DNA of 41,558 bases from Solirubrobacterales bacterium (lineage in GTDB: Bacteria > Actinomycetota > Thermoleophilia > Solirubrobacterales > 70-9). Below the pieces are notes generated by a model. It saw only the letters and a list, made by a program, of their open reading frames with translations, was not told the DNA's origin and did no database searches. The position numbers and the translations under genes are program-made. Position 1 is the first letter of the stretch. Each line of letters begins with the position of its first letter. The DNA lies in the NCBI GenBank assembly GCA_051954315.1, contig JBQCHW010000070.1:1-41558 (forward strand). The letters run 5' to 3'. Of this stretch, positions 4,821 to 40,100 are shown piece after piece.

Positions 4821-7232
4821 GTGCCCCCCAGAAAAGCAGAGAAAGCCCTCTCGGAGTACGAGCGCAAGCGGGACTTCGGGAAGACCTCGGAGCCGGCGCC
4901 GAAGAAGCGGCGAGGAAAGAAGGGGGCGCCGCGGTTCGTCGTTCAGGAACACAGCGCCCGGCGGCTGCACTGGGACCTGCGGCTCGAGCATGAGGGGGTT
5001 GCTGCTTCTTGGGCTATTCCGAATGGGATTCCGGAGAGCCCGGATGAGAATCGCAAGGCAGTGCATACGGAGGACCATCCGCTCGAGTATTTGAGCTGGG
5101 AGGGGGAGATTCCGAAGGGGGAGTACGGGGCCGGGACGATGGTGGTCTGGGACTCGGGCACCTACGAGCTGGAGAAGTGGACCCAGGGGAAAGTCGTCGT
5201 CGACTTCCACGGGGAGCGGCTGCGGGGGCGGTATGCGCTGTTTCGGGCCGGCAAGGCCGAGAAGGACTGGATGATCCATCGGATCGATCCTCCTGCTCAT
5301 GAGCGCGATCCGTTTCCGGAGAACTTGGTGCCGATGCTGGCGAAGCTCTCGCAGCTGCCGCGCGACGACAGCAAGTGGGCGGTGGAGGTGAAGTGGGACG
5401 GGATCCGGGCTATCGCCTACTGCCAGCCGGGCCGGGTTCAGCTGCAGACCCGCAACCTCAACGACGTCACCGCCCAGTACCCGGAGGTGCGGCGGATATC
5501 CCGCGCCCTGGGCGCCCACGACGCCGTGCTCGACGGCGAGATCGTCGCCTTCGACGAGGAGGGCCGGCCGAGCTTCGAGCGGATGCAGCAACGCATCCAC
5601 AACACCGACGAGAACGTGATCCGGCGGCGGATGCAGACCCACCCGGTCGTCTACGTCATCTTCGACCTCCTATATCTGGACGGGCAGGACCTGACCGGGG
5701 AGCCCTACACGCGCCGGCGCGAGCTGCTGGAGGGGCTGGAGCTGAAAGGCGACGCTTGGCAGACGCCGAGCTACGCGATCGGCCACGCCGAGGAGCTGCT
5801 GGCGGCGAGCAAGGAGCAGGGACTCGAGGGTGTGATGCTGAAGCGAGCCGACTCGATCTACTGCCCCGGCAAGCGCAACGGCACCTGGCTGAAGGTCAAA
5901 AACGTCAGCCGCCAGGAGATGGTGATCGGCGGCTGGACCCCGGGCGAAGGCCGCCGCAAGGAACACCTCGGCGCCCTCCTGGTCGGTTACTTCGAAGGGG
6001 ACGGCGGCAAGCCGGTCCTCCGTTATGCGGGGAAAGTCGGGACCGGCTTCAAGGCCGCCGACCTGACCGCGATCACCGCCCGTCTAGCGCCGCTGGAGCG
6101 CAAGACGAGCCCTTTCGGCGCCGGCCCGAAACCGCCGAAAGGCGCCCGGTTCGTCGAGCCGCGCCTCGTCGCCGAGGTTGAGTTCCGCGAGATGACCGGC
6201 GAGAAACAGCTGCGCCACGCCGCATACAAAGGGATGCGGGAGGACAAGGCGGCCGACGAGGTGGTGCTGGAGCAGGCGACCGACCCACAGGGCGAGTCGG
6301 TGACTGCCACCGCCGTCAAACGCCCGCGGAACAAAGCCGCGGTCACGGTCGAAGGGCACGAGCTCGAGCTCTCCAACCTCGACAAGGTCCTCTACCCGAA
6401 GGCCGGCTTCACCAAGGGCGAGCTGATCGACTGGTACGCGCGGATCGGCGAGGTCCTGCTGCCGCACCTGCGCGGCCGGCCGCTGACCCTGAAGCGCTAT
6501 CCCAACGGCGTCGAGGGCAAACACTTCTACGAGAAGCGCTGCCCCAGCCACCGCCCTGACTGGGTGACCACGGCCAGCGTCTGGAGCGACCGCCACAAGG
6601 GCGAGATCGACTACTGCGTGGTCGAAGACGTGGCGACCCTGGTCTGGCTGGCGAACCTCGCTGACATCGAGCTTCACACCTCCCTCGCCAAAGCCGCGGC
6701 GATCGAGCGCCCGACCTCGATGGTCTTCGACCTCGACCCCGGCGCCCCCGCCGACATCATCGATTGCTGCCAGGTTGCGGTCTGGCTGCGCGGCCTCTTC
6801 GAGCAGCTCGGGCTCGAGTGCTACCCGAAGACCTCCGGCTCGAAGGGGATGCAGCTCTACGTGCCGCTGAACGGCGAGGTGACCTACGACGACACGAAGC
6901 CGTTCGCGAAAGCGGTCGCCGAGACGCTGGAGAAGCGCTTTCCCGACCGCGTCGTCTCGCAGATGTCGAAGGCGAAGCGCCCGGGCAAGGTGTTGATCGA
7001 CTGGAGCCAGAACGACCAGCACAAGACGACGGTCTGCGTCTACTCGCTGCGGGCGAAAGATCGGCCGACGGTCTCGACCCCGCTGGAGTGGGACGAGGTC
7101 ACCGCGGCGCTCGAGGGAGGCGAGGCCGACGCCCTGGTCTTCGACCACGCCGACGTGCTCGAGCGCGTCGCCGCGAAAGGCGATCTCTTCGCGCCGCTCC
7201 TGAATGAAGAGCAGGAACTCCCGAACCTCTAG
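4821..7232 (+). CDS. ligD: Multifunctional ATP-dependent DNA ligase LigD (phosphoesterase - ligase - polymerase/primase)
   Basis: GTG start. N-terminal 3'-phosphoesterase signature PRFVVQEHSARRLHWDLRLE. Ligase motif I KxDG (EVKWDGIRA, ~5387-5410). C-terminal primase-polymerase motifs (MVFDLDPG, IDWSQN). Confidence 0.92.
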   Translation: MPPRKAEKALSEYERKRDFGKTSEPAPKKRRGKKGAPRFVVQEHSARRLHWDLRLEHEGVAASWAIPNGIPESPDENRKAVHTEDHPLEYLSWEGEIPKGEYGAGTMVVWDSGTYELEKWTQGKVVVDFHGERLRGRYALFRAGKAEKDWMIHRIDPPAHERDPFPENLVPMLAKLSQLPRDDSKWAVEVKWDGIRAIAYCQPGRVQLQTRNLNDVTAQYPEVRRISRALGAHDAVLDGEIVAFDEEGRPSFERMQQRIHNTDENVIRRRMQTHPVVYVIFDLLYLDGQDLTGEPYTRRRELLEGLELKGDAWQTPSYAIGHAEELLAASKEQGLEGVMLKRADSIYCPGKRNGTWLKVKNVSRQEMVIGGWTPGEGRRKEHLGALLVGYFEGDGGKPVLRYAGKVGTGFKAADLTAITARLAPLERKTSPFGAGPKPPKGARFVEPRLVAEVEFREMTGEKQLRHAAYKGMREDKAADEVVLEQATDPQGESVTATAVKRPRNKAAVTVEGHELELSNLDKVLYPKAGFTKGELIDWYARIGEVLLPHLRGRPLTLKRYPNGVEGKHFYEKRCPSHRPDWVTTASVWSDRHKGEIDYCVVEDVATLVWLANLADIELHTSLAKAAAIERPTSMVFDLDPGAPADIIDCCQVAVWLRGLFEQLGLECYPKTSGSKGMQLYVPLNGEVTYDDTKPFAKAVAETLEKRFPDRVVSQMSKAKRPGKVLIDWSQNDQHKTTVCVYSLRAKDRPTVSTPLEWDEVTAALEGGEADALVFDHADVLERVAAKGDLFAPLLNEEQELPNL

Positions 7233-21213: not shown

Positions 21214-23805
21214 TCAGGCGACGCCGATCTCAGCGACCGGCTTCTTCGTCCCATCCCCCTGACGCGCCTGCACCGGTTTCGTCTTCGCGCAGAGGGCGGC
21301 GAACTTTTCCAGCAGCGCTTCCAGCTTCTCCGGGCGAACGGCTGCGCGCTGCTGCGCAAGCGGCTCTTGGTGGGCGCCTCCGGAGAGCTCCTTGACCGCG
21401 GCATCGATTTCGCGGGCGATCTCGGGGGTCCAGCGGACCATGTGGAGGTTGTGGACGCGGATGTTGCGAACCTGCCGCTCGACCGTATTGCCGAGGACGT
21501 AGACCTCGATCATCCGCTCGTAGGCCTTGCGCAGCTCCAGCTTCCAGCGCTGCGCTTCGGCCTCGTAACGCGGGTCATTGCCCTTATATAGAGGCGTCAG
21601 CTGACTCTTCAGCTCGTGCCTCAAGGCCTTGGCGCGCGCCATCGGCGAGCGCGCCTCCCAGGGCAGATCGTCAGAGACCACGCCGACATCGTGGTAGCGG
21701 CGTTCGAGCGCCTGCCCATGTAGCTCGACCCCGAGCTCCTCGGCCTTCTCCTGCAGGTAGTAGACGAAGACGAGGTCGTGGGTGAGGACGACGACCTGGC
21801 GGTGGGCGGCTTCCTCGACCAGGCGGGCGGCGACGTGCTCGCGGCGCTGGTGATCGAGGGAGGAGACCGGGTCGTCGAGGAGGATCGCGCTGCGCTCGCT
21901 GCTGACCCGCAGCTCGGCGAGGAAGAAGGCGGTCGCGAGCGCGGTCTGCTCGCCGGTGCTCAAGACCTTGCCGACCTTCTCCCGCCCCTCGGCGCGCAGC
22001 TTGAACTGGACCGCCGGCTTGCCTTTGCTGGCCGAGGCCTTCAGCTCGACGCGGCTGGCGATTGGGTCGAGCTCGCTCATCTCCTGCTCGACCGCTTCCC
22101 GCAGGCGGTCGGTGATCGCCAGGCGGCTGAGCTCGCGGATCCGGTTGGAGATCGAGGCGGTCGAGAGCTCCCGGCGCGCCGCTTCGCGGGTGGCGATCGC
22201 CTCCAGGCTCTCTATATAGGCGAGGACATCGGCGCGCGCCTCTCCGACCGCCTGCCGCGCCCGCAGCTGCCGCAGGCGCTCCTGCACCCGGGCGCGCTCG
22301 CGCTCGTTGCGCAGGACCGCGAACCCTTCGGCTTCGGCGACCTGAACCGCGACGTAGTCGCGCAGCGGCTTCAGCTCCAGGCCCCCGTCGAGGGAGGGCT
22401 CGCTGCGGCCGGTGACGATCGCCAGCCGGTCGGCCAGCGCCGCCAGCGCCGCGTCGGCCGGCTCCTGCAGGTGCTCGCCGGCAGCAGCCACCGCGACCTC
22501 CGCGTGGTGGGACAGCTCGCCGAGGTCCGGCAGCGCTTCCAGGTGCTCGGTCAGCAGCGCGTCGACCTGCCGCACCTGCTCGCGCAGGTTGCCCGAGACG
22601 AAGGCCTCGAAGCGCCGCATCCGCTCCCGCCCCTGCTCTTCCAGGTCCTGCTGGCAGAGGGGGCAGGTGGCGTCGCCGGCCTCGTTCGGGAAGGCGCCGT
22701 CGCCGGCTTCGACGAAGCGCCGCGCCGCCTCCCACATCTCCCGCCAGGCCTCGCCGCCGGTCCCCGGCTGCGGCTGGTCGGCGAAAGCCTCGGCGGCAAC
22801 CTGGTCGACGGCGGCCGAGGCGCGCGCCAGCCGCGTGCGCAGCTCGCCGATCTCCTCCAGCGCCTCATCGTCGAGCCGCTTCCAGGCGTCCTCGAGCTCG
22901 GCGGCCAGCCGCTCGACCGCCGCCGCGCGCTTCCGCGCCGCGGCCTCCAGCTCACGGCTGCCGTCGGAGGCGATCGCCGCCTCTGCCTTCTCCAGCTCCC
23001 GCAGCTCCGCCAGCTCCTCCTCGCCCAGCGCGCCGAAGGCCTCGACCTCCGCCCGCGTGGCTTCGCCCGCCTCGACCCGCGCCAGTAGCGCCGCCGCCTC
23101 CGGGTCGTCCAGCTCCGGCAGCTCGGGCAGCGCGTCCCGCAAGCCGTCGATCTGCTCGGCCAGCTCCTCCGCCAGCTCGCCCTGCGCCTCGACCAGTTCC
23201 TTCAGCAGCCGCAGCGGCCGCGGCGTGTGTTCGATCGTGTTCGACTTGCTGATGCAGAAGTCGGCGCAGCTGGCGTCGAAGGCGGTGATCGCGGAGAGGA
23301 TCCGCGGCGCCTCCTCGGCGAGGTCGACCTCCACCACCCGCTCCTCGCCTTCGATCGCGATCACGAACTCTGCCGTCTGCGGCGCCTCCGCCCGGCCGGG
23401 ATCGAAGACGTCGTGAAGCACCTCGCCCGGTTCGGCGGCCCGGCAGACCCGGCGCGCCAGCCGCCCGTAGCCGCTCTTGCCCGCCCCGTTCTCGCCGAAG
23501 ACGACGTTGAGGCCGGGGCCGAAGGAGAGCGCCTGGTCGCCGGCGAGGCTGTTGATGTTCTGCAGGTTGCGGATCTGCCGCAGTTCCACCGTCCCGTAAG
23601 CGCCCTCGTCGGCCGGCAGGTCGACCAGCCCTAGCGGCGGCAGCTCAGCGTCGCCGCCCCCGAGCAGCGCCGCCAGCACCCGCCCCCGCCCCGCCTCGTC
23701 GAGCGGGCCGTCGCAGAGCAGCCGCAGCAGCCCGCGCTGCCAGGCGGGCAGCTTCTCCGACCAGTTGAAGATCCGCTTCTGGAGGAACACGTCCCGCTCG
23801 GGCAT
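21214..23805 (-). CDS. Rad50-like ABC-type ATPase of the AAA_13 (RloC/PrrC-related) type
   Basis: Walker A GENGAGKS (aa 104-111). ~500-aa Ala/Glu/Leu/Arg-rich coiled-coil insert with CPLC at aa 381-384. ABC signature LSTGEQ (615-620), Walker B ILLDD (641-645), H-loop LTHD (674-677). ~185-aa C-terminal domain. Confidence 0.8.
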   Translation of the reverse strand: MPERDVFLQKRIFNWSEKLPAWQRGLLRLLCDGPLDEAGRGRVLAALLGGGDAELPPLGLVDLPADEGAYGTVELRQIRNLQNINSLAGDQALSFGPGLNVVFGENGAGKSGYGRLARRVCRAAEPGEVLHDVFDPGRAEAPQTAEFVIAIEGEERVVEVDLAEEAPRILSAITAFDASCADFCISKSNTIEHTPRPLRLLKELVEAQGELAEELAEQIDGLRDALPELPELDDPEAAALLARVEAGEATRAEVEAFGALGEEELAELRELEKAEAAIASDGSRELEAAARKRAAAVERLAAELEDAWKRLDDEALEEIGELRTRLARASAAVDQVAAEAFADQPQPGTGGEAWREMWEAARRFVEAGDGAFPNEAGDATCPLCQQDLEEQGRERMRRFEAFVSGNLREQVRQVDALLTEHLEALPDLGELSHHAEVAVAAAGEHLQEPADAALAALADRLAIVTGRSEPSLDGGLELKPLRDYVAVQVAEAEGFAVLRNERERARVQERLRQLRARQAVGEARADVLAYIESLEAIATREAARRELSTASISNRIRELSRLAITDRLREAVEQEMSELDPIASRVELKASASKGKPAVQFKLRAEGREKVGKVLSTGEQTALATAFFLAELRVSSERSAILLDDPVSSLDHQRREHVAARLVEEAAHRQVVVLTHDLVFVYYLQEKAEELGVELHGQALERRYHDVGVVSDDLPWEARSPMARAKALRHELKSQLTPLYKGNDPRYEAEAQRWKLELRKAYERMIEVYVLGNTVERQVRNIRVHNLHMVRWTPEIAREIDAAVKELSGGAHQEPLAQQRAAVRPEKLEALLEKFAALCAKTKPVQARQGDGTKKPVAEIGVA

Positions 23806-27326: not shown

Positions 27327-27596
27327 GTGATAACTCATACTCCACCACCTGCTGTAAAGTCGGTAAACGTGACGAATGGAGTTGGGCTCAAGGCAGCAGC
27401 GCGCGCTGAGATGATCAGGCGGCTTTCCGTCGCCGGTCAATCGGTTGCCGCAGGGGAGTCGACCCTGTTTCACGCCAAGCTTGAGCGGGACCGCGAGATC
27501 AAGAAGGCAAGTGAACTTGGGCTCAGTCGCCGTGAAGTCGCTCAGGCAGTTGGACTTACCGCGGCGGGCATTCAGCAGATCCTTTCCCGGACCTAG
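27327..27596 (+). CDS. Small protein with C-terminal helix-turn-helix (possible controller/regulator)
   Basis: C-terminal LGLSRREVAQAVGLTAAGIQQILSRT looks like an HTH. The stop lies 6 nt before the methyltransferase ATG. The start codon is uncertain (GTG 27327, GTG 27366 or ATG 27411) and there is no clear SD. Confidence 0.45.
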   Translation: MITHTPPPAVKSVNVTNGVGLKAAARAEMIRRLSVAGQSVAAGESTLFHAKLERDREIKKASELGLSRREVAQAVGLTAAGIQQILSRT

Positions 27597-27602
27597 CTCG
27601 GG

Positions 27603-28988
27603 ATGCCACAAGCGAAGAAGCGTTCGGGCCGACAACCCGGCTCAAGTCCCGAGCCAGTGGCGATGATCCGGGTCTCCGATCTTCCTCGCCAGCGGCGCTT
27701 CAAATTCGATCCCGAGAGCATGGGTCGATTGACGCACCACCTTTTCCGTTTCCCGGCGAAGTTTCACCCGCCGGTTGTCAGACAGCTGATTCAGGACTAC
27801 ACGGAGGAAGGAGAGACGATCCTCGATCCGTTCTGTGGTAGTGGCACGCTGCTGGTGGAGGCTTCGGTCCTCGGGCGCAACTCCATCGGTATTGACGTCG
27901 ACCCGCTGAGCGTCTTCGTCACCAACGTCAAGGTTCATGCGCTGCGCCAAAGCAGTATCGAAGAAACGACAGAAGGGCTGGCCGAGATCCTCGACGAGCT
28001 ACAGCGAACTCCTCAGGAACTCGCGAGCTTCAAGACCTCCGACCTAAATCCGCACGAGTATGAGGCTGAGCTGGACGGTGCATGGGTTCCGGAAATCCCC
28101 AAGCTCCATCACTGGTTCTACCGCTATGCCATCGTCGACCTAGCCCGCCTGCTTGAGGCCATCGACAAAATCGACGCACCTCAGACGCACCGCGACTTCC
28201 TCCGCCTCATTTTCGCCGCTACCGTTCGAGGGGCGTCGCGGGCTGACCCTGTACCTGTCTCAGGGGTTGAGGTGACCAGAGTCATGCTTGAAAAGGAGCG
28301 GAAAGGGAGATCGGTTGATGTAATTCAAATCTTCCGAAAAAGACTGCGATGCGCCGTTGAGGAGATGGGCACCTACCGAGATGCGCGGGTCGCGAGCGCA
28401 AATGCTCGCGCCTATCGAGCCGACATTGCCTCTCTGCGGACGAATCTGGCACCTCAAGTTGATGTTGTAATTACCTCTCCGCCCTATCACGGCGCGGTCG
28501 ACTACTACCGTCGCCACCAACTCGAGATGTTCTGGCTTGGTATGACTAAGGATCAAACCGACCGCCTTAGGCTGCTCGAGCACTATCTCGGCCGCCCGCG
28601 GGTGCCGGAAAGGCACCGCTATGTGGCGGGAGAGAGTTTGGAGTTAGCAAAGACCCAGAGTGTCGAGGCGATGATGCGGAAGGTCTCCCCAGAGCGAGCT
28701 AACGCTTTTAAGCACTACTCAATTGGGATGTCTCGAGCCTTTCAGAACATTGCACGGCGAATGGATGAGGGAGCGTGCTGCATCCTTGTCGTCGGCCACA
28801 GCAGTTGGAACGGAGGTTCAATTAACACGTCTCAGTTGATGGCCGAACTAGCCCAGCCGCATTTCAAACTTGGAGAACGTCTCTATTACCCGGTGAAGAA
28901 TCGGTATATGTCATATGAGCGTCACAATGGGGCCAGTATCGACCAAGAGCACGTGCTGATTTTTGAGCGAACGGCGATGGAGGCTTAG
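27603..28988 (+). CDS. DNA methyltransferase (N6-adenine or N4-cytosine), motif I upstream of motif IV
   Basis: AdoMet motif I ILDPFCGSGTLLVEA (F77-G81, nt ~27831) preceded by FPAKFHPPVVRQLI. Catalytic motif IV ITSPPYHG (S292-Y295, nt 28476-28487). C-terminus EHVLIFER. Confidence 0.85.
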   Translation: MPQAKKRSGRQPGSSPEPVAMIRVSDLPRQRRFKFDPESMGRLTHHLFRFPAKFHPPVVRQLIQDYTEEGETILDPFCGSGTLLVEASVLGRNSIGIDVDPLSVFVTNVKVHALRQSSIEETTEGLAEILDELQRTPQELASFKTSDLNPHEYEAELDGAWVPEIPKLHHWFYRYAIVDLARLLEAIDKIDAPQTHRDFLRLIFAATVRGASRADPVPVSGVEVTRVMLEKERKGRSVDVIQIFRKRLRCAVEEMGTYRDARVASANARAYRADIASLRTNLAPQVDVVITSPPYHGAVDYYRRHQLEMFWLGMTKDQTDRLRLLEHYLGRPRVPERHRYVAGESLELAKTQSVEAMMRKVSPERANAFKHYSIGMSRAFQNIARRMDEGACCILVVGHSSWNGGSINTSQLMAELAQPHFKLGERLYYPVKNRYMSYERHNGASIDQEHVLIFERTAMEA

Positions 28989-29022: not shown

Positions 29023-31644
29023 ATGACCGACGATTCCACAGACGACCTCAAGCCTGCGAATTCTCCCCAGGTGACGGGTGAGGGCTCCGAGGAGAACGGG
29101 GATTCAACCGAGGGCACGCTCGCAGCGGCCCTGGATGCAGACGGCGAGTTTCAGGAGAATCTCACGGTTGAGATCGCCTATGAGGTAATACAACTGCTTT
29201 CTGAGCAGCTGTACTCATCGCCTCTAAAGGCGATCGAGGAGCTGGTGGTCAACTCGTGGGATGCCGACGCGTCTGAGTGTCGGGTCTTCGTTCCCACTCC
29301 CGATGTTCTTGCAGATATTGCGCCGACCACGGCCATCGCTGTGCTGGACAACGGCCACGGAATGACGGTGGACGACCTGCGGAATCTTTGGCACGTAGGA
29401 CTTTCAAGTAAGAGGGATGCAGGATGGGAGCAACGTGCCAACCGGACTCAGATAGGGAAGTTTGGAATTGGCAAGCTCGCGAGCTACGCGATTGCCCGTC
29501 GGGTTACCTACTTGACCAAGGTGCAAGGCGAGCCAGTCCGAGGCGTCACTATCGATTTCGAGCAGTTCCGAACGGCCGAGAATGGGGATGGCGATGTTGA
29601 GTCGGTAACCCTACGAATGATGCGGTTTGATGAGCCGGATCGACTTCTGGAGGAGCCACAGGTGGCATCTCTCTTGGAGGGCCTCGATGTCGGAGGGGAC
29701 ATACTGAGTGAGAGTGGGTGGGAGCACTGGACGCTTGTTGTTCTTGAGTCTTTGAAGCCGAAGGCCGCCGATGTAACGGAAGGGCGGCTCCGTTGGGTTC
29801 TGTCCACCGCAATGCCAGCAGCGTCAGATTTCAATCTGTATCTCAATAAGACCAATGTCGCTAGTTCAAAGCTGACCGGTGATTTTCCGGTTGATTTTAC
29901 GATCACGGAGGTCAACCCTGAGCGGCTCAAATCCTTGAAGAAGGCGACGGGAGTTGAGTGGACTGTAGACGGTGACCGTCTCGTGTCAGACTCATTCCCC
30001 GTCGGGGTGCGCGGTCGGATTCGGGTGGCGGAGCGGTCACTCTATGCGGCCAGTGGTAAGAGCGAGGACCTTGGACGCAGCCATGGGTTCTTTGTTCGGG
30101 TCCGCGGTCGCCTAGTCAACGAGACTGATCCTCTATTTGGCGCGAAGCCAGTGTCGTTCACGACCTTTTACAACTTGCTGGCAGAGGTCGATGCGGATGA
30201 TCTAGACAGCTTCATCACCGCTCCTCGGGACGACGTGGTGCAGGCGACTGAGAAGGAGCACTTCAGGTCTCTGCTGTTGGAGTTATTCAATGAGGCACGC
30301 ACTCGTCACGAGGCACATCTCGATGAGAAGGACAAGGAGGACCAGAAGCGCGAGGAGTCGCGGATATATGTCAATCCGCAGCTTGTAGAGCGGCCAGTGG
30401 CCGATGTCTTGGTTAACGAAGCAGGCGGCTCTGAGGCCAAAGACTGGCTCCTACTTGACCCCGGGGAGGACGATGAGGCACTGCAGCGCCTCATCGAGAG
30501 CCTCTATGAGGAGAGCCCGGAGCGACGCCGGTACACCTACAAGTACACGGGTTCTGGCAATCAGCAGGCGATTGCGCGATTCGATGCAGATCAGGGGATT
30601 TTCTGGGTCAACGAGGACCACGATCTCGTCATCGCAAATCAGGACGATCCAGAGGCGCGACGACTATTGGAGGTCGTGATCACTGCCGAGGCGATGCTTG
30701 AGGTTTATCTTCGCGAGGCGGCCATTGATCCGCGTGTGGTCGAGTTTGTCCTCACCCGACGCGACCAATTGCTTCGGAGTCTGGCGCGGGATGAGCTTTA
30801 TTCGCTCAAAGCAATCGCAGCGTCAATCCGAAGCGCCCGCGACTCAGCAAACGAGCTCGAGATTGCTGTTGTCGGCGCGTTGCGGTCTCTTGGCTTCGTA
30901 GCCAAGCACGTTTCGGGCTCCGGGACTCCCGATGGAGAGGCGTGGTACGAGGTATATGGCCCGGAGCAAAAGACGTTCACGCTAGAGGCGAAGTCATCCA
31001 AGGATGTTCCCTCGCTGGGAAATCTCGACTTCGGCGGTCTTCGCCAGCATTACGAGGACAAAAGGGATGAGGGGGCGGAGGGCTGCCTCCTTGTTGCTCC
31101 AGCCTATCCGGGGCAAAATGAGCCAGAGGAAGGTCAGGTCGGCAAACGCGCTACGACCCAGAGCGTCTCGTGCTGGACGATTGACAGCCTCTCGGCGGTC
31201 GTTGAGGCTGCCGAGGTCCGTCATATCACTGCCGAGGAGATACAAAAGATCGTTCTCACGAAGTTCAAGCCGGGTGAGGTCAAAGAGGCCGTCGACCTGC
31301 TGCTCAATGACCCGGGTTGGTCGCGTCGCTCGCTCTACATGGCAATCCTCGACAGCTTGGAGGCTCTCAAAGGCCACATGCCGAATAGCCCACGAACCGT
31401 CGACATGCTTGCCGCCCAGATAGCGATGAAGTCGGATTTTGCCGGTATCGAGCGAGACGACATTCTCGACGCCGCCGAGCAGATGGCCCAAGCCAGCAAG
31501 GGAATGCTGCACGTGACGCGGACCGATGGGACGATTCGAGTCCCCGGATCGCTTGATGAGTTACGCCGGCGCTTGAAGGGCATGACTGGCGACCACGGTG
31601 AGCCACGCCGCCGAGGCACGTTTCGTGATCGCTCGGACTCGTAG
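29023..31644 (+). CDS. GHKL (Bergerat-fold, MORC/MutL-like) ATPase fused to a C-terminal PD-(D/E)xK nuclease-like module
   Basis: N-box EELVVNSWDAD (aa 72-82), G1 DNGHGM (109-114), G2 GKFGIGKLA (145-153). C-terminal Mrr-like pattern ELEIAVVGALRSLGF...TPD637GEAW...FTLE655AK657SS. Confidence 0.8.
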   Translation: MTDDSTDDLKPANSPQVTGEGSEENGDSTEGTLAAALDADGEFQENLTVEIAYEVIQLLSEQLYSSPLKAIEELVVNSWDADASECRVFVPTPDVLADIAPTTAIAVLDNGHGMTVDDLRNLWHVGLSSKRDAGWEQRANRTQIGKFGIGKLASYAIARRVTYLTKVQGEPVRGVTIDFEQFRTAENGDGDVESVTLRMMRFDEPDRLLEEPQVASLLEGLDVGGDILSESGWEHWTLVVLESLKPKAADVTEGRLRWVLSTAMPAASDFNLYLNKTNVASSKLTGDFPVDFTITEVNPERLKSLKKATGVEWTVDGDRLVSDSFPVGVRGRIRVAERSLYAASGKSEDLGRSHGFFVRVRGRLVNETDPLFGAKPVSFTTFYNLLAEVDADDLDSFITAPRDDVVQATEKEHFRSLLLELFNEARTRHEAHLDEKDKEDQKREESRIYVNPQLVERPVADVLVNEAGGSEAKDWLLLDPGEDDEALQRLIESLYEESPERRRYTYKYTGSGNQQAIARFDADQGIFWVNEDHDLVIANQDDPEARRLLEVVITAEAMLEVYLREAAIDPRVVEFVLTRRDQLLRSLARDELYSLKAIAASIRSARDSANELEIAVVGALRSLGFVAKHVSGSGTPDGEAWYEVYGPEQKTFTLEAKSSKDVPSLGNLDFGGLRQHYEDKRDEGAEGCLLVAPAYPGQNEPEEGQVGKRATTQSVSCWTIDSLSAVVEAAEVRHITAEEIQKIVLTKFKPGEVKEAVDLLLNDPGWSRRSLYMAILDSLEALKGHMPNSPRTVDMLAAQIAMKSDFAGIERDDILDAAEQMAQASKGMLHVTRTDGTIRVPGSLDELRRRLKGMTGDHGEPRRRGTFRDRSDS

Positions 31645-31710: not shown

Positions 31711-31738
31711 CCATTTCGGGCACTAGTGCCCGAAATGG
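31711..31738. terminator. 28-nt perfect palindrome downstream of the GHKL gene (terminator or binding site)
   Basis: ccatttcgggcactagtgcccgaaatgg is its own reverse complement. It lies 67 nt after the stop at 31644. No T-tract follows. Confidence 0.45.
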
Positions 31739-31807: not shown

Positions 31808-31880
31808 TGGAGCTAGGCGGATTCGAACCGCCGACCTCCTGGGTGCGATCCAGGCGCTCTGCCAGCTGAGCTATAGCCCC
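31808..31880 (-). tRNA. tRNA-Ala (anticodon CGC)
   Basis: A 73-nt cloverleaf read by hand: acceptor GGGGCUA/UAGCUCC with G3:U70, D arm GCUC/GAGC, anticodon stem CCUGG/CCAGG with loop AUCGCAC, T arm GGCGG-UUCGAAU-CCGCC, discriminator A. CCA is not encoded. Confidence 0.9.
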
Positions 31881-31966: not shown

Positions 31967-32908
31967 ATGAGCATCCTCGACGACGCCATTCGAGAGCACC
32001 TGGAACTGAAGCGCGCCCATGGCGCGGATGAGGCCGAGCTGAAACGGCTCGAGGACGAGGCCTTTGGGCCGCCCGGGCGGCCGGAGGAGCCCGATCCCTT
32101 CGCCGAGGCGCCGACGGAGTTCATGGCGACCCCAGATGTGCCGGGGGAGGCGGGGCCGGCGGAGTCGAGCGGCGGGCGGCGGATCAACATCGCCGACCTG
32201 CAGGAGCCGCCCCCGCCAGAGCGCGTCGAGGAGCGCGAGCAGCCGCGGGTGGAGGCGACGGATGCGATCGAGCCGGAGGCCGAGGCCGCACCGCTCGCCC
32301 CGGCCGAGGACGCGGGCCAGGCGGCGCCGCCGGCGGAGGAGGACCTGCCCCTCGCCGAGGAATCGCCGGCGATGGAGCACGAGATCGTCGTCGAGCCAGC
32401 CGAGGACCTCGCCCCGGAGCCCGCCGCCGAGGCCGCGCCAGGCGAGGAGACCCAGGAGCGCCACGCGATCGCCGAACAGCCGACCGAACTCTTCGACATC
32501 GAGGCCGAGATGGGGACCGAAGACGCCCCCGCCGAGCCCGCGGCTGAGATCCAGGCCTCCCGCACCGAGCCCCTCGCCGACGACGAGGACGAAGAGGACG
32601 AGGAGTTCTGGAGCGAGCAGCGCCTCTCCGACGAGCTCGATCAGGCCCTGGAGGCCCCGCCGCTCACCGACGAGCACGAGGTGGCGCCCCGCACCGACGT
32701 CCACGAGATCCCCGCGCCGGTCGCCGACCCCTCGGCCCCCGTCCAGGAGGACGAGGACGAGGAGGACGACGCAGCCCGCCCGGACTACGACCCGGACACC
32801 GGCCACGAGGACGTCCTCGAGGACACTCCTGACTTCCTCGAGGACGCCCCCGAGGACGACGAGCTCTGGTTCGAGCAGAAGCCCCCGAAGGACTTCGACC
32901 TCGACTGA
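31967..32908 (+). CDS. Highly acidic Asp/Glu/Pro/Ala-rich protein (313 aa), probably disordered
   Basis: ATG 31967 is preferred over the listed 31886, which abuts the tRNA. Short helical N-terminus MSILDDAIREHLELKRAHGADEAELKRLEDEAFG, then a low-complexity acidic body. GC3 is high. Confidence 0.65.
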   Translation: MSILDDAIREHLELKRAHGADEAELKRLEDEAFGPPGRPEEPDPFAEAPTEFMATPDVPGEAGPAESSGGRRINIADLQEPPPPERVEEREQPRVEATDAIEPEAEAAPLAPAEDAGQAAPPAEEDLPLAEESPAMEHEIVVEPAEDLAPEPAAEAAPGEETQERHAIAEQPTELFDIEAEMGTEDAPAEPAAEIQASRTEPLADDEDEEDEEFWSEQRLSDELDQALEAPPLTDEHEVAPRTDVHEIPAPVADPSAPVQEDEDEEDDAARPDYDPDTGHEDVLEDTPDFLEDAPEDDELWFEQKPPKDFDLD

Positions 32909-33780: not shown

Positions 33781-33811
33781 GAACACCGGGGTTCGCCAAG
33801 GCGAAGAGAAG

Positions 33812-33884
33812 TGGAGCCAGCCGGGTTCGAACCGGCGACCTCCTGCTTGCAAAGCAGGCGCTCTTCCAGCTGAGCTATGGCCCC
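33812..33884 (-). tRNA. tRNA-Ala (anticodon UGC)
   Basis: A 73-nt cloverleaf: acceptor GGGGCCA/UGGCUCC with G3:U70, anticodon stem CCUGC/GCAGG with loop UUUGCAA, T arm GCCGG-UUCGAAC-CCGGC. It lies 26 nt downstream of lipA. Confidence 0.9.
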
Positions 33885-34897: not shown

Positions 34898-35842
34898 CTA
34901 GCGAGCCCCCACATCGGCCGGTGCGGCCCAGAGCACCTCGTGCAGCCGCTTCAAGCAGTCGTCGACAAAGTCGAGGTCGCCGCCGACCCGCATCCGCCCG
35001 CGGTCGCCGTCGAGGAGCGCCGCGAACCAGGTGTCGACGGTGCCGATCGCCCAGGCGTCTTCGGACGGTTTGGCCTTGACGCAGCGGACCGTGCCGCCGG
35101 CGCTTACGTGCACAGTCAGGGTGTCCGAGCCGCGCTCACCGTCGAATCCGGTTGTGCCGACGATCCCGAGTTTGATGCTCCGCTCTTGGTGTTCGGGAAG
35201 TTGCAGCAGGGGAAGGGAGGCTCGCAGCGCGGTCGTCATCTCGCCGACCGTCAGGCCCCCTTCCTCTTCGCCTTCGACGTGCTGCTGCCGCCAGCGGCCG
35301 AGCCCCGCCATCAGCGCCATCGCGTGCCGGGTCTGGTCGCTCATCTGGTAGCGCTTGCGATGCCCTTTGCCAGGGGTCTCATAAAGGAGGCTCCAGGAGA
35401 GCAGCTGGTGGGTGCGGCGGCTGACCTGGTGGAAGGTCATCTCCGCGGTCGCCTCAGCGAGGTCGGTGGCGGAGCGCCCGCCCTGGCCGAGCTCCTCGAT
35501 CCACCCGTATGTCCACATCTCGCCGAGTAGGCCGCAGACTGTCCACAACCCTTCGCCGCTACCGGGGCCGGTGACCCAAGGAAGCGAAGCTTTCGAGTAG
35601 GAGTCGATCAGGTGGTAGAGGTCCCGCCCGGCCGGGCTGAGGCAGTGGATCACGGTCGAGGGAACGCCGGCGACCTCTTCGCGGTCGACGAGCCCCAGTT
35701 CCGCCAGCTTGCGCGCATGCCGGTAGACAGTGCGCGGCGCATAAGTCGGAACCTTTTCGGTCAGCTTCTTGGTGCGCAGAGACCGAGGGCCGAGGGCCAT
35801 CAGGATCGGCCCATTAGCCCCGTTTCCGAGCAGCTTCAACAT
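34898..35842 (-). CDS. Winged-helix (HxlR/ArsR-like) transcriptional regulator with an SCP2-like C-terminal domain
   Basis: Two wHTH-like segments (TKKLTEKVPTYAPRTVYRHARKLAELGLVDRE; MTFHQVSRRTHQLLSWSLL). 15 nt upstream of lipA. No alternative start exists in the open upstream frame. Confidence 0.6.
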   Translation of the reverse strand: MLKLLGNGANGPILMALGPRSLRTKKLTEKVPTYAPRTVYRHARKLAELGLVDREEVAGVPSTVIHCLSPAGRDLYHLIDSYSKASLPWVTGPGSGEGLWTVCGLLGEMWTYGWIEELGQGGRSATDLAEATAEMTFHQVSRRTHQLLSWSLLYETPGKGHRKRYQMSDQTRHAMALMAGLGRWRQQHVEGEEEGGLTVGEMTTALRASLPLLQLPEHQERSIKLGIVGTTGFDGERGSDTLTVHVSAGGTVRCVKAKPSEDAWAIGTVDTWFAALLDGDRGRMRVGGDLDFVDDCLKRLHEVLWAAPADVGAR

Positions 35843-36194
35843 GTCGGCGACGGAGGTCTCCTCGCCGTAAAGCTTTTTCGACTCCGCTTCGATGGGCTGG
35901 CCGCCTCTCCCCGAATAGTCCGCCGTCCCTGACTGGGTACGCGACGATATCCAGCGTAGCTCGCCCTGTCACTGAGTGCCAACTGCTAACGAGCGACTTT
36001 TGTCACTCGCTGACCCTCTAGGTGATACACCCATTTGCAGGGGAAAGACAAGAACCGTCCTATCCGCTGCATCGCCCGACGACGAGGTAAACGTCCGCTG
36101 GTCTGCTCACACACCCTTGATCGCTCGCGAATCGCTGGTAGAAGCTCCAATCGAAACATCCCGTCCATTCGGGCGGAAAGCAAAGAGCCCTCGA

Positions 36195-36274
36195 GACGCG
36201 CGTCTTGCAGGCAAGCGCCCCGAGAGCTCGATCAACGCCCAGCCAAGCTGGGCATCAAGGAAAGGAAGTATCTC
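36195..36274 (+). promoter_or_regulatory. Conserved 5' leader of P4 with hairpin 36237-36253
   Basis: Aligns with the P3 leader. Hairpin gcccagc-caa-gctgggc differs from the P3 hairpin by two compensatory base-pair changes. Confidence 0.55.
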
Positions 36275-36973
36275 ATGAGCAAGAAGCTCATCACGGCCTG
36301 TATGGCTCTGTTCGCGCTTGCGGCGTTTGTGTTGCCGGCGTCAGCCTCTGCAGTCGAACTCACACATCCGACAAGCACGCGGCTCGCTACCAACGTGAAG
36401 ATCGATGCGACAAGCATCGGGATCCAGAAGTTGACAGACCCCTCGGGCAACCCGCTGGTTGAATGCACGTCTGCGACAATGACAGGAACGCTGACCAAGA
36501 ACAACGGCAGCGAAGTGGAAGGCAGCATCGAAAGCACCACCTTCAGCGGAACTGGCACGAACGGCGAGTGCACATCGGTCATCGGAGGACTCACCGTCGA
36601 CACGAACCTCGGCAACGGTACGCCTTGGTGCCTCCGCGCGACCCCGACGATGAACGCAGATGAATTCCAAGTTCGTGGAAACTCCTGCGCCAACGCATCG
36701 CGGCCGATCACATTTGTCCTAACAAGCACAACGATCGGTACCTGCAAGTACTCGCGGAGCGAACCGATCAGGGGGACATACACCACAGATACAAACCCCA
36801 ATCCGCAGGATGCAATCCTGAGCCTCTCTGGAAGTGGTGAAACAGGCACGACCGACACCAATTTCACGAAGGAGGAAGGATCCTTCCTTTGCCCCGGCAG
36901 CGGAACGCTGGACATGGAATTCACACTGGAGACAGACACCACGCCGACCGCGTCACCTCTGTATATCTCGTAG
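36275..36973 (+). CDS. Small secreted Cys-containing Thr/Gly-rich protein, family member P4
   Basis: ATG 36275 follows aaggaaaggaag; the longer listed ORF from 36035 is not supported. Signal peptide ends ASASA. Six Cys. Confidence 0.85.
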   Translation: MSKKLITACMALFALAAFVLPASASAVELTHPTSTRLATNVKIDATSIGIQKLTDPSGNPLVECTSATMTGTLTKNNGSEVEGSIESTTFSGTGTNGECTSVIGGLTVDTNLGNGTPWCLRATPTMNADEFQVRGNSCANASRPITFVLTSTTIGTCKYSRSEPIRGTYTTDTNPNPQDAILSLSGSGETGTTDTNFTKEEGSFLCPGSGTLDMEFTLETDTTPTASPLYIS

Positions 36974-36992
36974 GAGCACTCTCGACGCTATT

Positions 36993-37030
36993 GGTTGGGC
37001 CGCCGGTGTGGGCTGCCCAACCTTTATTTT
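36993..37030 (+). terminator. Intrinsic terminator after P4
   Basis: 12-bp stem with one mismatch (ggttgggccgcc / ggctgcccaacc), loop ggtgtg, then tttatttt. Confidence 0.65.
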
Positions 37031-37182
37031 GAGGAGTCCGGAGCCGCCGGGTGACACAAGTCACTCGGCGCACTCCTGGCGTACCTTGACACCGATGACC
37101 AGAGCCTCCTACGTTTCGGCTGAACTGGAGAGGGCTAGCAACTACTCCGGCAGGGAACTTCATCAGAAGAAGGGGTATAGGA

Positions 37183-40100
37183 GTGACCATAAAAAAGCTC
37201 TTGGCAACTAGCGCGCTTCTGTTTGCAGCAAGCCTTGCTCCTCCACTCCCCCCGTCCCCGGCGGCCGCAGCTGGTTGCCCAAACGAAGCCCTTCGGGTGG
37301 GACCCTCAGCCACCCTACCCGGCTGCCGAGCCTACGAGCTGGTCAGTCCCCCTAACAGCGATGGGCGGATGCTGGAGGCAATCTCACAATTTACGTTTGG
37401 TCGCCCATACGATCTGTTCCCTACCGAACTTGCATCTCCGGTTAAGGACAGCTTTATCTACGAGACGTTCGCCGGAGCCTTGGCATCTCCCGCAGGCGGG
37501 AGTGGGGCATTCGACGTCTACCGGGCGGAACGCCAGTTGAGCGGATGGAACACGATCGACCACCTCAGCCGTCCTTCGGTGAACTTGGTCTGGCCGTTTC
37601 CAGGCGGAGCCTCCGCCGACCATACCTACTCCTTCCAGGACGAAGGGAATGCAAGTTATCTGCGAGATTCCCAGGGTTCCTATGAGTTGACGGGCATAGG
37701 ACAGCTAGGAGCTGAACCAGCTGCGCAGGGAAGGTACATAAGCGACGGCGGTGGCCACGTGCTTTTCTCTACTGGCGACAAAGTAGGGCAGAGCGAATGG
37801 TGCAGTGGCTGTCCGGTGCTACAACTCCAGCCCAATGCTCCTCCGACCGGGACCGGCGCCGTGTACGACCGCGATGCCGATGGGGAAACCCACGTCATTT
37901 CTTTGCTGCCCACCGACGAACCTCCAGCTGCAAATGAAGAGGCTTTCTACAAGGGTGCCTCAAAAGACGGCAGATCAGTGGCCTTCATGATCGAAGGAGT
38001 CTTGTATGTGCGCCTCAACAGGTCGAAAACGCTTGAAGTGGCAGCTGGGAGCCCCAAATTTGCTGGCATATCCGCGAATGGGAGATTTCTCTTCTACGTT
38101 GCCGGCGGCATCATCCATCGCCTTGATACCCAGGTTCCCGCCGATACTGAGATAAACCCGAGCGGCGAAGCAGAAGTCGTCAACATTTCGGATGACGGTT
38201 CGCACGTCTACTTCATCTCTGAGCAGCAGTTGGCTGGCGGTGAAGGCACTGCCGGACAACCAAACATGTACGTCTGGACCAGCAATGGCCTCAACTTTAT
38301 ATCCACGGTGGTGCCTAGCGACTTATCTCGCACCTCCGGAGATCTAGCCAATATTCCCTCATTGACGGCTTGGACTCACCGGGTGTTCGAGGCTCCATCT
38401 GGTGCTGAAGCAGGACCCGGTGCCGAGTCGTCACGCACCACCCCAAATGGCGTTGTGCTCGTTTTCGAGTCTAGGGGACAGCTGACCTCATACGATAACA
38501 ATGGTCATACCGAGATTTACCGGTATGACGAAGCAGAAAGCCCGCACCTTAGGTGTGTGTCCTGCAATCCCCATGGCGACGCTTCCGGCGATGCCCACTT
38601 CCAAGATTTGGAGCGAGTAGGCCCTCCATTCGTTCTCAACAATGTTAGTAGCGACGGCACCAAGGTGTTCTTCGAATCTCCTGAAGCCCTAGTCGCGGGA
38701 GATACCAATGCGGGTAACGACATTTATGAGTGGGAACAGGTCGGGTCCTCATCGGCACTAGATCTGATCTCCTCGGGAAAGCAGTCAGATTATCCCCTTC
38801 CTGAAGGGTGGCTTTCTCCCTTCACCCCTAAGGGGAACCTCCTTCTGTCGGTCACTCCGAGTGGAAATGACGTCTTTTTCACGGCGAAGGAGGCGCTGGT
38901 CCCGGGTGCCGGCGAGGCGGGCACCCAGGCAATCTACGACGCCAGGGTCGACGGTGGCTTCCCGGTGCCCCCCGTTAAGGCTCAGTGCTCCGAGGATGGG
39001 TGTAGGCCTGTCGGATCCGGCGCGACCTCCTCCCCCAGTTCGACGCAGTCCGAACGCCCTTCCGGCGGCGGCAACATCAAGCCGCGGAAGCGTCGCTGTG
39101 GCCGCGGGACGAAGAAGGCGACGCGCCGCAACTGCTTGAAGCATCGTCGCCATTGTCGCAAGCATCGCCACTGCTCCAAGGACGCTAAGCAGGCTCGGGC
39201 CCGAAGCTCGGCTGCAGTGGCTTCCCCGTCCCCGCCGAATCAGGAGCCTCCGACGCAGGGAAGCGCGTTCGGGGCCACCTCCGAGAAGGTCTCGAGTAGC
39301 GCGCAGACGACGAGTCAGCCCTCGGCTGTCGAATCCGAAGAATTCGGCATTGAAGCGTTCGAGGTCGGGTTAACTAACTCGAACGCTGGCACTCCAGGGG
39401 ATTTCACTACCACCTTTGTCCTCAACCATTTTGTAGATGGCGCAGGCCGCCAGGAAGCCAACGCCAGCGTGGAAAACCTCTCCCTAAACCTGCCTCCGGG
39501 CCTGTTGGGAAATCCTGCGGCGGTGCCCCGCTGCCGCATGGGCGACTTCGTCTCCTTCGGAAATTGCTCGCTCGACGCTCAGGTGGGAGTCACCACCGTA
39601 CGGGTGGGAAACCCTCTCTACACCAGTGCGACCGAGCCCGTCTACAACCTGACCCCGCCTCATCCAGGTCAGGAAGTCGCCCGGCTTGGATTCATCGCCG
39701 ACCTCTTCCCCGTCTTCATCGACGTCAAGGTTCGGACCGCGGAGGATTACGGAGTCACCGCCACTGTGCATAATGCGCCTGGACTTGGAGCGGTGATTCG
39801 CTCAAAAACCACCCTTTGGGGTGATCCGGCTAGCTCTCTCCACAACGAACAGCGCCTCAGCCCCTACGAGGCGGCCTGCACTGGTAACCCCGAATGCACG
39901 CCCCCTCCTGGCGGTCACGCGAGCGGGATCCCCGACGCTGATCAAAAGGCCTTCATGACCACCCCCTCGGCCTGCCAGTCAGGTGAAGTGAGCTTGGAAG
40001 CAACGGCCTACCAGCTCCCCGGCCAGACCTTCACCGCCTCCGCCCCCCTAGCCCCCATAACCGACTGCACCGGCCTCCCCTTCGCCCCCACCTTCAGCGC

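Follow-up and report, generated by a model that had tools for sequence, protein, structure and literature searches.

In REBASE, a GHKL domain stands at the N-terminus of five subfamilies of Type II restriction endonucleases, confirmed or putative (Orlowski & Bujnicki 2008, PMC2441816). Among them, R.VeiORF1182P combines GHKL with a C-terminal PD-(D/E)XK fold, R.HgiDII/BbrUII combine it with an unassigned C-terminus, and HgiDII is assigned to the orthodox Type II enzymes, subtype P (PMC2441816). Another survey places the paraMORC families in restriction-modification (R-M) systems, where they would serve as the ATP-driven engine for a nuclease (Iyer, Abhiman & Aravind 2008, PMC2292703). It describes paraMORC3 as GHKL plus S5 plus a C-terminal domain of the restriction-endonuclease fold with an E-D-ExK motif, and its nuclease-bearing subset as mainly proteobacterial or Bacteroidetes, stand-alone and with a RecB-like nuclease (PMC2292703). 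ParaMORC3-like proteins were later equated with DUF4263/Shedu type I-D, and in VcSduA, a Shedu type I-D protein of Vibrio cholerae, phage defence requires the ATPase and the nuclease, and a GHKL dimer is predicted (PMC12137116). The present analysis concerns a 41,558-nucleotide stretch of DNA from a Solirubrobacterales bacterium (contig JBQCHW010000070.1, hereafter the window). It carries a gene for an 873-amino-acid fusion of a GHKL ATPase with a predicted PD-(D/E)xK nuclease (R) directly downstream of a gene for a DNA methyltransferase (M). R is probably the restriction subunit of an R-M pair.

R resembles the REBASE subfamilies in the fusion of an N-terminal GHKL domain with a C-terminus that bears a nuclease, and in the pairing of its gene with that of a DNA methyltransferase. 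The GHKL domains of those subfamilies have no demonstrated role. The best named matches of R were the NCBIfam model of BbrUII/HgiDII (NF050001, E = 9e-22) and the PADLOC model REase_II (E = 2.6e-12), and both covered the N-terminal domain only. Membership in the BbrUII/HgiDII family was rejected because the score of 77.3 bits is far under the cut-off of 550 bits and only the GHKL part of the model, profile positions 3-137 of 659, aligned. The R.VeiORF1182P subfamily was compared by description only and may be the same subfamily.

As portrayed in PMC2292703, paraMORC3 has the architecture and the motif order E...D...ExK in common with the R family. The R family differs in its Mrr/FokI/HindIII-like core, in giving no DUF4263 signal and in the linkage to M in about 80-90% of loci. 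VcSduA is also alike in its GHKL ATPase, clamp-like middle domain and C-terminal PD-(D/E)xK nuclease. However, its nuclease is a DUF4263 domain, it is encoded by a single gene and it discriminates self from non-self in a methylation-free manner, whereas the R family has a conserved M partner. Membership of R in Shedu was rejected. The C-terminus of R did not match DUF4263 (PF14082) at E ≤ 10 and neither did any of 18 family members, no PADLOC SduA model was matched, and the gene is not stand-alone.

Parallels also exist in MutL-MutH-Dam and in MORC/SMCHD1, in which GHKL and transducer domains make up an ATP-operated dimerisation clamp on DNA that is tied to DNA methylation. In MutL/MutH the clamp is tied to a PD-(D/E)xK nuclease, and R carries its nuclease fused in cis. 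Unlike MORC/SMCHD1, R has no CW or coiled-coil chromatin modules, and its resemblance to MORC in the strict sense is a fold-level similarity to MORC2. The catalytic domains of FokI, HindIII and Mrr share a common core with R, the ExK of R falling on D108-A-K110 of HindIII. These enzymes are without a GHKL ATPase, and the similarity is weak and extends over about 80-130 residues.

In the literature, no study was found on what a GHKL ATPase does in an R-M enzyme, nor any experimental work in which a GHKL-nuclease acts together with a methyltransferase. Of the proteins with this general plan, VcSduA is the only one for which experiments were found there, and it is methylase-independent. The prediction of GHKL-nuclease R-M fusions dates from 2008, and validation of a Shedu-type one followed in 2025. 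The R family is therefore an unnamed and uncharacterised member of an already predicted kind. It fits predictions already published and therefore does not overturn current ideas. Its description fills an annotation gap, and no model of Pfam, NCBIfam or PADLOC covers the C-terminal two thirds of the family. The family is large, compact (two genes) and structurally well predicted, and its catalytic residues are cleanly defined, which makes it a convenient system. The question it opens is whether a clamp of the Hsp90/MORC type can license a restriction enzyme to cut DNA.

Domains and predicted catalytic centres of the R protein

The R gene is a genuine open reading frame (ORF). It starts with ATG, is translated without internal stops and has an AGGA Shine-Dalgarno-like motif 6 nucleotides 5' of the start. 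An original prediction, made by a model from the letters and a list of ORFs, had described it as a MORC/MutL-type GHKL ATPase fused to a C-terminal PD-(D/E)xK module. All of the residues which it quoted (E72, N77, D80, D109, G111, G113, G145, G148, G150, D637, E655, A656 and K657) were found at their positions, and its hydrophobic helix ELEIAVVGALRSLGF begins at residue 611. An AlphaFold2 model of the full-length protein had a mean pLDDT (predicted local distance difference test score) of 82.5. Conservation was followed in two sets of sequences. One comprises 40 homologues with 45-78% identity to R. The other comprises 33 sequences, reaches about 27% identity and takes in a divergent subfamily of about 27-30% identity with archaeal members.

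The N-terminal ATPase domain was identified with Pfam HATPase_c_3 (PF13589), which covers residues 67-197 with 68.4 bits against a cut-off of 25 (E = 8e-19). Motif I reads E73-L-V-V-N77-S-W-D80. It had been given as E72-x4-N77-x2-D80, and while these residues are present, alignment with Hsp90 corrected the register. Because E73 aligns with the catalytic glutamate of Hsp90 (R-E-L-I-S-N), the canonical motif is E73-x3-N77-x2-D80, and E72 pairs with the arginine preceding that glutamate. Both E72 and E73 are invariant among the 40 homologues, and the corrected motif I is unchanged in both sets. Motifs II (D109-N-G-H-G113) and III (G145-K-F-G-I-G150-K151) are as originally read. D109, G111, G145, G148, G150 and K151 are invariant in both sets, and position 113 is glycine, serine or alanine in the divergent subfamily. 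In the alignment, motif III of R, IGKFGIGKLASYAIA, is close to IGQFGVGFYSAYLVA of Hsp90.

The ATPase belongs with those of Hsp90 and MORC (HATPase_c_3), so that the MORC half of the earlier label stands and the MutL half does not. In the NCBIfam ranking, the BbrUII/HgiDII N-terminus, an HSP90-family model, sacsin and HtpG all came above MutL. Membership in MutL was rejected, with 21.6 bits against a cut-off of 180 for TIGR00585, a match confined to residues 66-122 and no MutL_C in Pfam. Foldseek with the full-length model returned TRAP1, Hsp90, MORC2 and SMCHD1 in alignments of about 400-790 columns, of which those with the MORC2 ATPase module had about 450 columns and those with Hsp90/TRAP1 540-790.

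The roughly 450 residues between the ATPase and the nuclease had been regarded as devoid of any motif. Because the Hsp90 and MORC2 fold alignments extend through the middle domain, much of this region is probably the standard second domain of GHKL ATPases, the middle/transducer domain, although no Pfam model matched it. For the remainder, residues 409-607 with a long helical hairpin, a small beta unit and a helical linker, Pfam and PDB sequence searches gave no match. The middle domain holds an invariant loop, G-K346-S-E-D-L-G-R352-S-H-G-F. Its residues K346, S347, D349, R352, S353, G355 and F357 are invariant among the 40 homologues, and R352 is retained in 32 of the 33 sequences. The loop from K346 to R352 is a candidate gamma-phosphate sensor.

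The fold of the C-terminal part of R was predicted with good confidence. In the full-length AlphaFold2 model, the core is composed of a helix (609-622), three strands (626-628, 640-643 and 651-656), a helix (670-679) and a strand (685-692), and an independent model of the C-terminal part gave the same alpha-beta-beta-beta-alpha-beta pattern. E613 lies on helix 1, P636-D637 just before strand 2, and E655-A-K657-S658 on strand 3, which is the classical layout of PD-(D/E)xK nucleases. E613, D637 and K657 are present in 33 of 33 sequences, archaea included, and position 655 is glutamate in 21 and aspartate in 12 of them. Among the 40 homologues, the E-D-(E/D)xK residues are likewise invariant. A departure from the restriction-endonuclease fold or a lack of conservation of these residues had been named as what would speak against the nuclease, and neither was found.

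In sequence searches, the C-terminal 289 residues of R gave only noise against Pfam (E ≤ 10) and PDB (BTRD1, ATP-cone and talin), and a signal to known nucleases arose only once divergent family members were included. A core profile with such members matched HindIII (E = 9e-4) and placed (E/D)-A-K-S on the D-A-K-S of HindIII, whose catalytic residues are Asp108/Lys110 (PMC3479186). When 18 family members were scanned singly, Mrr_cat was matched by seven (best E = 7.4e-5, for a divergent member), FokI_cleav_dom by seven, RE_HindIII by two, NA-iREase1 by two and RE_endonuc by one. Foldseek with the C-terminal model found EcoT38I, EndoMS/NucS, PaqCI and viral Mrr-domain and 'restriction endonuclease' proteins with probabilities of 0.95-0.99. 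The local match covered 118 columns at a root-mean-square deviation (rmsd) of 3.7 for EndoMS/NucS and 130 columns at 4.8 for a viral 'restriction endonuclease'. The fold call was not based on Foldseek alone because the full-length search was swamped by Hsp90/MORC and the E-values of the C-terminal search are weak. Topology, conservation and the Mrr_cat and HindIII matches agree with the Mrr-like D637/E655-A-K657 assignment made at the outset. The prediction of a PD-(D/E)xK nuclease of the Mrr/FokI/HindIII kind with a single active site is thus supported by sequence and models.

The tail of about 200 residues that follows the nuclease was originally said to show no recognisable motif. The local Foldseek matches in this part were the winged-helix/lid regions of ORC/Cdc6 (7ctf_A with 90 columns, rmsd 3.2 and probability 0.99; 7jk6_D; 8s0c_A) and RuvB, and because of them the tail is taken as a helical bundle with a winged-helix-like module like the C-termini of these proteins. 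As modelled, the winged helix is a plausible candidate for a DNA-binding or recognition element. In the basic motif near the C-terminal end, E-P-R-R-R-G-T-F-R, R862 and R863 are invariant and P861, F867 and R868 nearly so among the 40 sequences, and the motif is not retained in the divergent subfamily.

The N-terminus is acidic, as had been noticed, with 13 aspartate or glutamate residues and one lysine among the first 45. Residues 1-26 have pLDDT below 50 and are predicted to be disordered. The length and sequence of this tail differ among close homologues with its acidity retained, and it is missing in distant ones. The close subfamily combines the basic PRRRGTFR C-terminus with the acidic disordered N-tail, whereas distant members lack these features or do not conserve them. 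An electrostatic contact between the two, intramolecular or intersubunit, is conceivable.

Linkage to the methyltransferase and spread of the family

The gene upstream of R was identified as that of a DNA methyltransferase by Pfam and PADLOC, as the original prediction had it, and the two genes are separated by 34 nucleotides. The M protein matches Pfam N6_N4_Mtase and UPF0020, and over its full length PADLOC MTase_II (E = 1e-37). Its motif I (FCGSG, at residue 77) comes before its motif IV (SPPY, at residue 292). Alignment with solved structures was obtained around motif I only, including structures of tRNA N2-methylguanosine and DNA N4-cytosine methyltransferases. From the SPPY motif, the product of M is predicted to be N4-methylcytosine or N6-methyladenine.

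More than 1,363 database matches to R were obtained. Nearly all of them are 830-870 residues long and annotated 'hypothetical' or 'ATP-binding protein'. Among 185,579 species-representative genomes there were 364 matches in a patchy distribution. Members are common in Actinomycetota, Chloroflexota and Acidobacteriota and occur as well in Planctomycetota, Bacteroidota, Proteobacteria and archaea. In PLSDB plasmids no full-length member was found, and the matches were to the GHKL domain only and annotated 'ATP-binding protein'.

The linkage was surveyed in 81 non-redundant loci. A DNA methyltransferase gene lies within 700 bp of R in 66 of them and within 1.5 kb in 3 more. The 66 linked M genes comprise 53 of the type found in the window, 12 complete beta-class N6/N4 enzymes and one C5 enzyme. 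No methyltransferase was seen in the other 12 loci, 8 of which have truncated flanks. Three gene orders were observed, in which M precedes R, follows it on the same strand or follows it in convergent orientation, and in the close relative L086 the two genes overlap by 4 bp. Pairwise identities of R and M correlate with a Pearson r of 0.77 over 1,225 pairs, and the R proteins paired with beta-class M form a single clade. The adjacency of the two genes and the co-evolution of their proteins support the earlier idea of an effector beside a methyltransferase.

The identities are imbalanced at some loci. In L018, M is 69-71% identical to that of the window and R only 45%, and L073 and L083 are similarly imbalanced. 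This points to the exchange of the M unit, or of M with a putative controller (C), between R lineages. In close relatives with 78% and 63% identity, the M-R pair is conserved in unrelated neighbourhoods, one of which contains an integrase, an excisionase-like helix-turn-helix (HTH) protein, patatin and CHAT. The pair itself stands in an islet of low GC content bordered by a tRNA gene. From this islet, the shifting neighbourhoods and the patchy spread, a mobile R-M module is the best reading of the M-R pair. The cassette would consist of two genes, M and R, or possibly of three, C, M and R.

Several loci had features of their own. In the beta-class clade (L012, L016, L019, L024, L030, L031, L034, L036, L040, L055 and L058), a short complete N6/N4 M gene often overlaps the 3' end of R. 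The partner in L048 is a C5 methyltransferase, and in L067 a Vsr-C5-methyltransferase fusion is present together with a DUF4928 gene upstream. R proteins about 43-47% identical to that of the window thus pair with three methylase classes. In L004 (10548-16068, minus strand) the family member adjoins a complete Type I R-M system. In L057 (8771-12981, minus strand) R is found beside a Gabija-like pair of an OLD-TOPRIM/AAA_15 ATPase and a UvrD-like helicase, and no methyltransferase was seen there.

Proposed mechanism and rival explanations

A working mechanism can be proposed. M would mark host DNA at N4-cytosine or N6-adenine, and R would attack unmarked DNA. The winged-helix tail, possibly with elements of the linker, would bind DNA and read the unmodified site. 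By analogy with the ATPases of Hsp90, MutL, MORC and type II topoisomerases, ATP binding would dimerise two GHKL domains and thereby close a clamp on DNA. Clamp closure would bring together two single-site FokI/Mrr-like nuclease domains so that both strands are cut, and ATP hydrolysis would reset the enzyme. It is tentatively suggested that the family is a distinct ATP-dependent restriction class in which an Hsp90/MORC-like GHKL clamp gates a FokI/Mrr-like nuclease and ATP-driven dimerisation around unmethylated DNA is obligatory for double-strand cleavage, although we are inclined to doubt this. Such a class would use a GHKL clamp instead of the helicase/translocase of Types I, III and ISP or the AAA+ GTPase of McrBC. 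If true, it would provide a tractable bacterial model for how GHKL ATPases with a link to methylation, MORC and SMCHD1 among them, engage DNA. Taken separately, an obligatory requirement of ATP for cleavage by R has at best an even chance.

Some points weigh against an ATP-gated restriction enzyme paired with M. Every step of the mechanism comes from computation, and ATP need not be required for cleavage because HgiDII, which bears a GHKL domain, is counted among the orthodox Type II enzymes. The nuclease assignment is a convergence of several modest signals with strict motif conservation. R itself matches no nuclease hidden Markov model (HMM), and the best E-values of the nuclease fold searches were 8e-3 (PDB) and 3e-3 (BFVD), which are weak. 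Four loci with adequate flanks show no detectable methyltransferase, and some members may therefore work without M or with one encoded elsewhere. Moreover, R proteins of 40-50% identity pair with three classes of methyltransferase, which would be unusual if R alone fixes one recognition sequence.

A rival possibility is that R is a stand-alone immune nuclease of the Shedu kind (type I-D, 'paraMORC3', VcSduA-like), the GHKL domain sensing infection and licensing the nuclease, with M incidental or belonging to another system. A few members are without an adjacent M, and one of them sits beside the OLD/UvrD pair in an apparent defence island. The plan of HATPase_c_3, Hsp90-like middle domain and C-terminal PD-(D/E)xK nuclease is common to both, and ATPase mutants and nuclease mutants of VcSduA each abolish phage defence. 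This reading is nevertheless unlikely. Neither R nor the 18 members matched DUF4263, though Mrr_cat, FokI and HindIII models do match members. PADLOC found no SduA, no Shedu structure was among the top 50 PDB fold matches, and M is adjacent in 66 of 81 loci and co-evolving, in contrast to the stand-alone nuclease-bearing paraMORC3 and VcSduA. The same linkage, near-obligate and including the 4-bp gene overlap, is what characterises systems protected by modification. It makes it quite improbable that R is a modification-dependent Mrr-like nuclease of Type IV which cuts foreign methylated DNA next to an M of non-target specificity. Type IV enzymes often have nucleoside triphosphatase partners. 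The best Pfam kinship of the nuclease core, in the divergent member, is with Mrr_cat, and a viral Mrr-domain protein was among the fold matches. On the other hand, the core is equally like HindIII and FokI, which cut unmodified DNA, and Pfam scans detected no reader of modified bases (SRA, EVE or YTH).

The combination of a GHKL ATPase, a PD-(D/E)xK nuclease and a methylase also parallels MutL, MutH and Dam. R might then unite a MutL-like ATPase and a MutH-like nuclease for methyl-directed repair or nicking, with the neighbouring methylase providing strand discrimination instead of serving defence. EndoMS/NucS, a mismatch nuclease, is among the fold matches, and the occasional recruitment of such modules to repair is raised by Iyer et al. 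(PMC2292703). However, the patchy distribution (364 of 185,579 genomes), the low-GC islet at a tRNA gene and the changing neighbourhoods with an integrase are those of a mobile selfish or defence element. With the MutL models far under their cut-off and no MutS-like partner seen in the loci inspected, this explanation is very improbable. The lowest probability is given to a degenerate, non-catalytic nuclease or ATPase, by which the protein would be purely a DNA-binding or regulatory factor. The missing nuclease HMM match of R would fit it, as would the two members matching NA-iREase1, an 'inactive' restriction-endonuclease-like domain of Pfam. Yet the catalytic residues of both centres are retained family-wide at 27-87% identity, which is unexpected for inactivated domains. 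Restriction by R together with modification by M is the reading retained here.

The islet and its neighbourhood

The coordinates of the gene pair and its surroundings are collected in Table 1. The islet extends from about 27.05 to 31.8 kb with a GC content of 56-61%, against 66-74% in the flanks, and the R gene has 58% against 66% for the whole window. No tRNA-derived direct repeat was detected at the left border (score within shuffles), and no integrase was found within the islet.

Table 1. Features of the M-R gene pair and its islet (positions in the window; aa, amino acids; domain boundaries marked ~ are approximate)
Feature	Position	Strand	Basis
Small ORF, 61 aa from M29 of an 89-aa ORF (27327..27596); candidate Xre/HTH_3-type controller (C)	27411..27596	+	
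M gene, 461-aa DNA methyltransferase	27603..28988	+	Pfam, PADLOC, motifs
R gene, 873-aa GHKL ATPase - predicted PD-(D/E)xK nuclease fusion	29023..31644 (incl. stop)	+	ORF list, translation, homologues, AlphaFold2
Acidic disordered N-terminal tail, aa 1-31	29023..29115	+	Composition, pLDDT, comparison of homologue N-termini
GHKL (Bergerat-fold) ATPase domain, ~aa 47-250	29161..29772	+	Pfam, invariant motifs, Hsp90 alignment, Foldseek
Probable middle/transducer domain, ~aa 251-405	29773..30237	+	Foldseek, invariant loop
Long helical hairpin (aa 409-467), then a small beta unit (aa 504-530) and a helical linker (aa 534-607)	30238..30846	+	AlphaFold2 secondary structure
Predicted PD-(D/E)xK nuclease core, ~aa 609-735	30847..31227	+	Two AlphaFold2 models, conservation, HindIII profile, Pfam, Foldseek
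Helical bundle and winged-helix-like module, ~aa 736-856	31228..31590	+	Foldseek local matches
Basic motif E-P-R-R-R-G-T-F-R, aa 860-868	31600..31626	+	Conserved in close subfamily only
Perfect 14+14-nucleotide palindrome CCATTTCGGGCACT/AGTGCCCGAAATGG, between R gene and tRNA-Ala	31711..31738	.	
tRNA-Ala(CGC) at right border of low-GC islet	31808..31880	-	ARAGORN

The small ORF upstream of M matches HTH_3 weakly, at E = 0.004, which is under the cut-off. It is retained directly 5' of M only in L018 (74%) and L015 (61%), the loci with the closest M, and because its position relative to M is conserved there, it may be a controller protein. In L088, a 57-residue ORF overlaps the start of the M gene. 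The palindrome 3' of R is possibly a transcription stop. It was not called in the terminator scan because it is without a T-run, and the signals of the promoter and terminator scan of the islet were not above chance expectation.

Beyond the islet, a second tRNA-Ala gene (TGC, 33811-33884, minus strand) lies 2 kb from tRNA-Ala(CGC), and the surrounding and intervening ORFs have no Pfam match. The stretch 32077-32486 has a high AT skew and contains several direct repeats, all imperfect. A second stretch of low GC content (57-61%) is located downstream at 35500-39500. It contains a 312-residue ORF without a Pfam match (36035-36973) and may be another acquired segment. At the other end of the window, a 1,097-residue ORF at 179-3472 had no Pfam match, and a complete three-domain LigD, a non-homologous end joining ligase with phosphoesterase, ligase and primase-polymerase, is encoded at 4821-7232 on the plus strand. 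An 863-residue AAA_13/SMC-like ATPase is encoded at 21214-23805 on the minus strand and matches the PADLOC candidate defence family PDC-S06 nearly end to end (E = 1e-149). Its gene is about 3.8 kb from the R-M islet, and genes for a PD40 beta-propeller and an AMP-binding enzyme lie between them.

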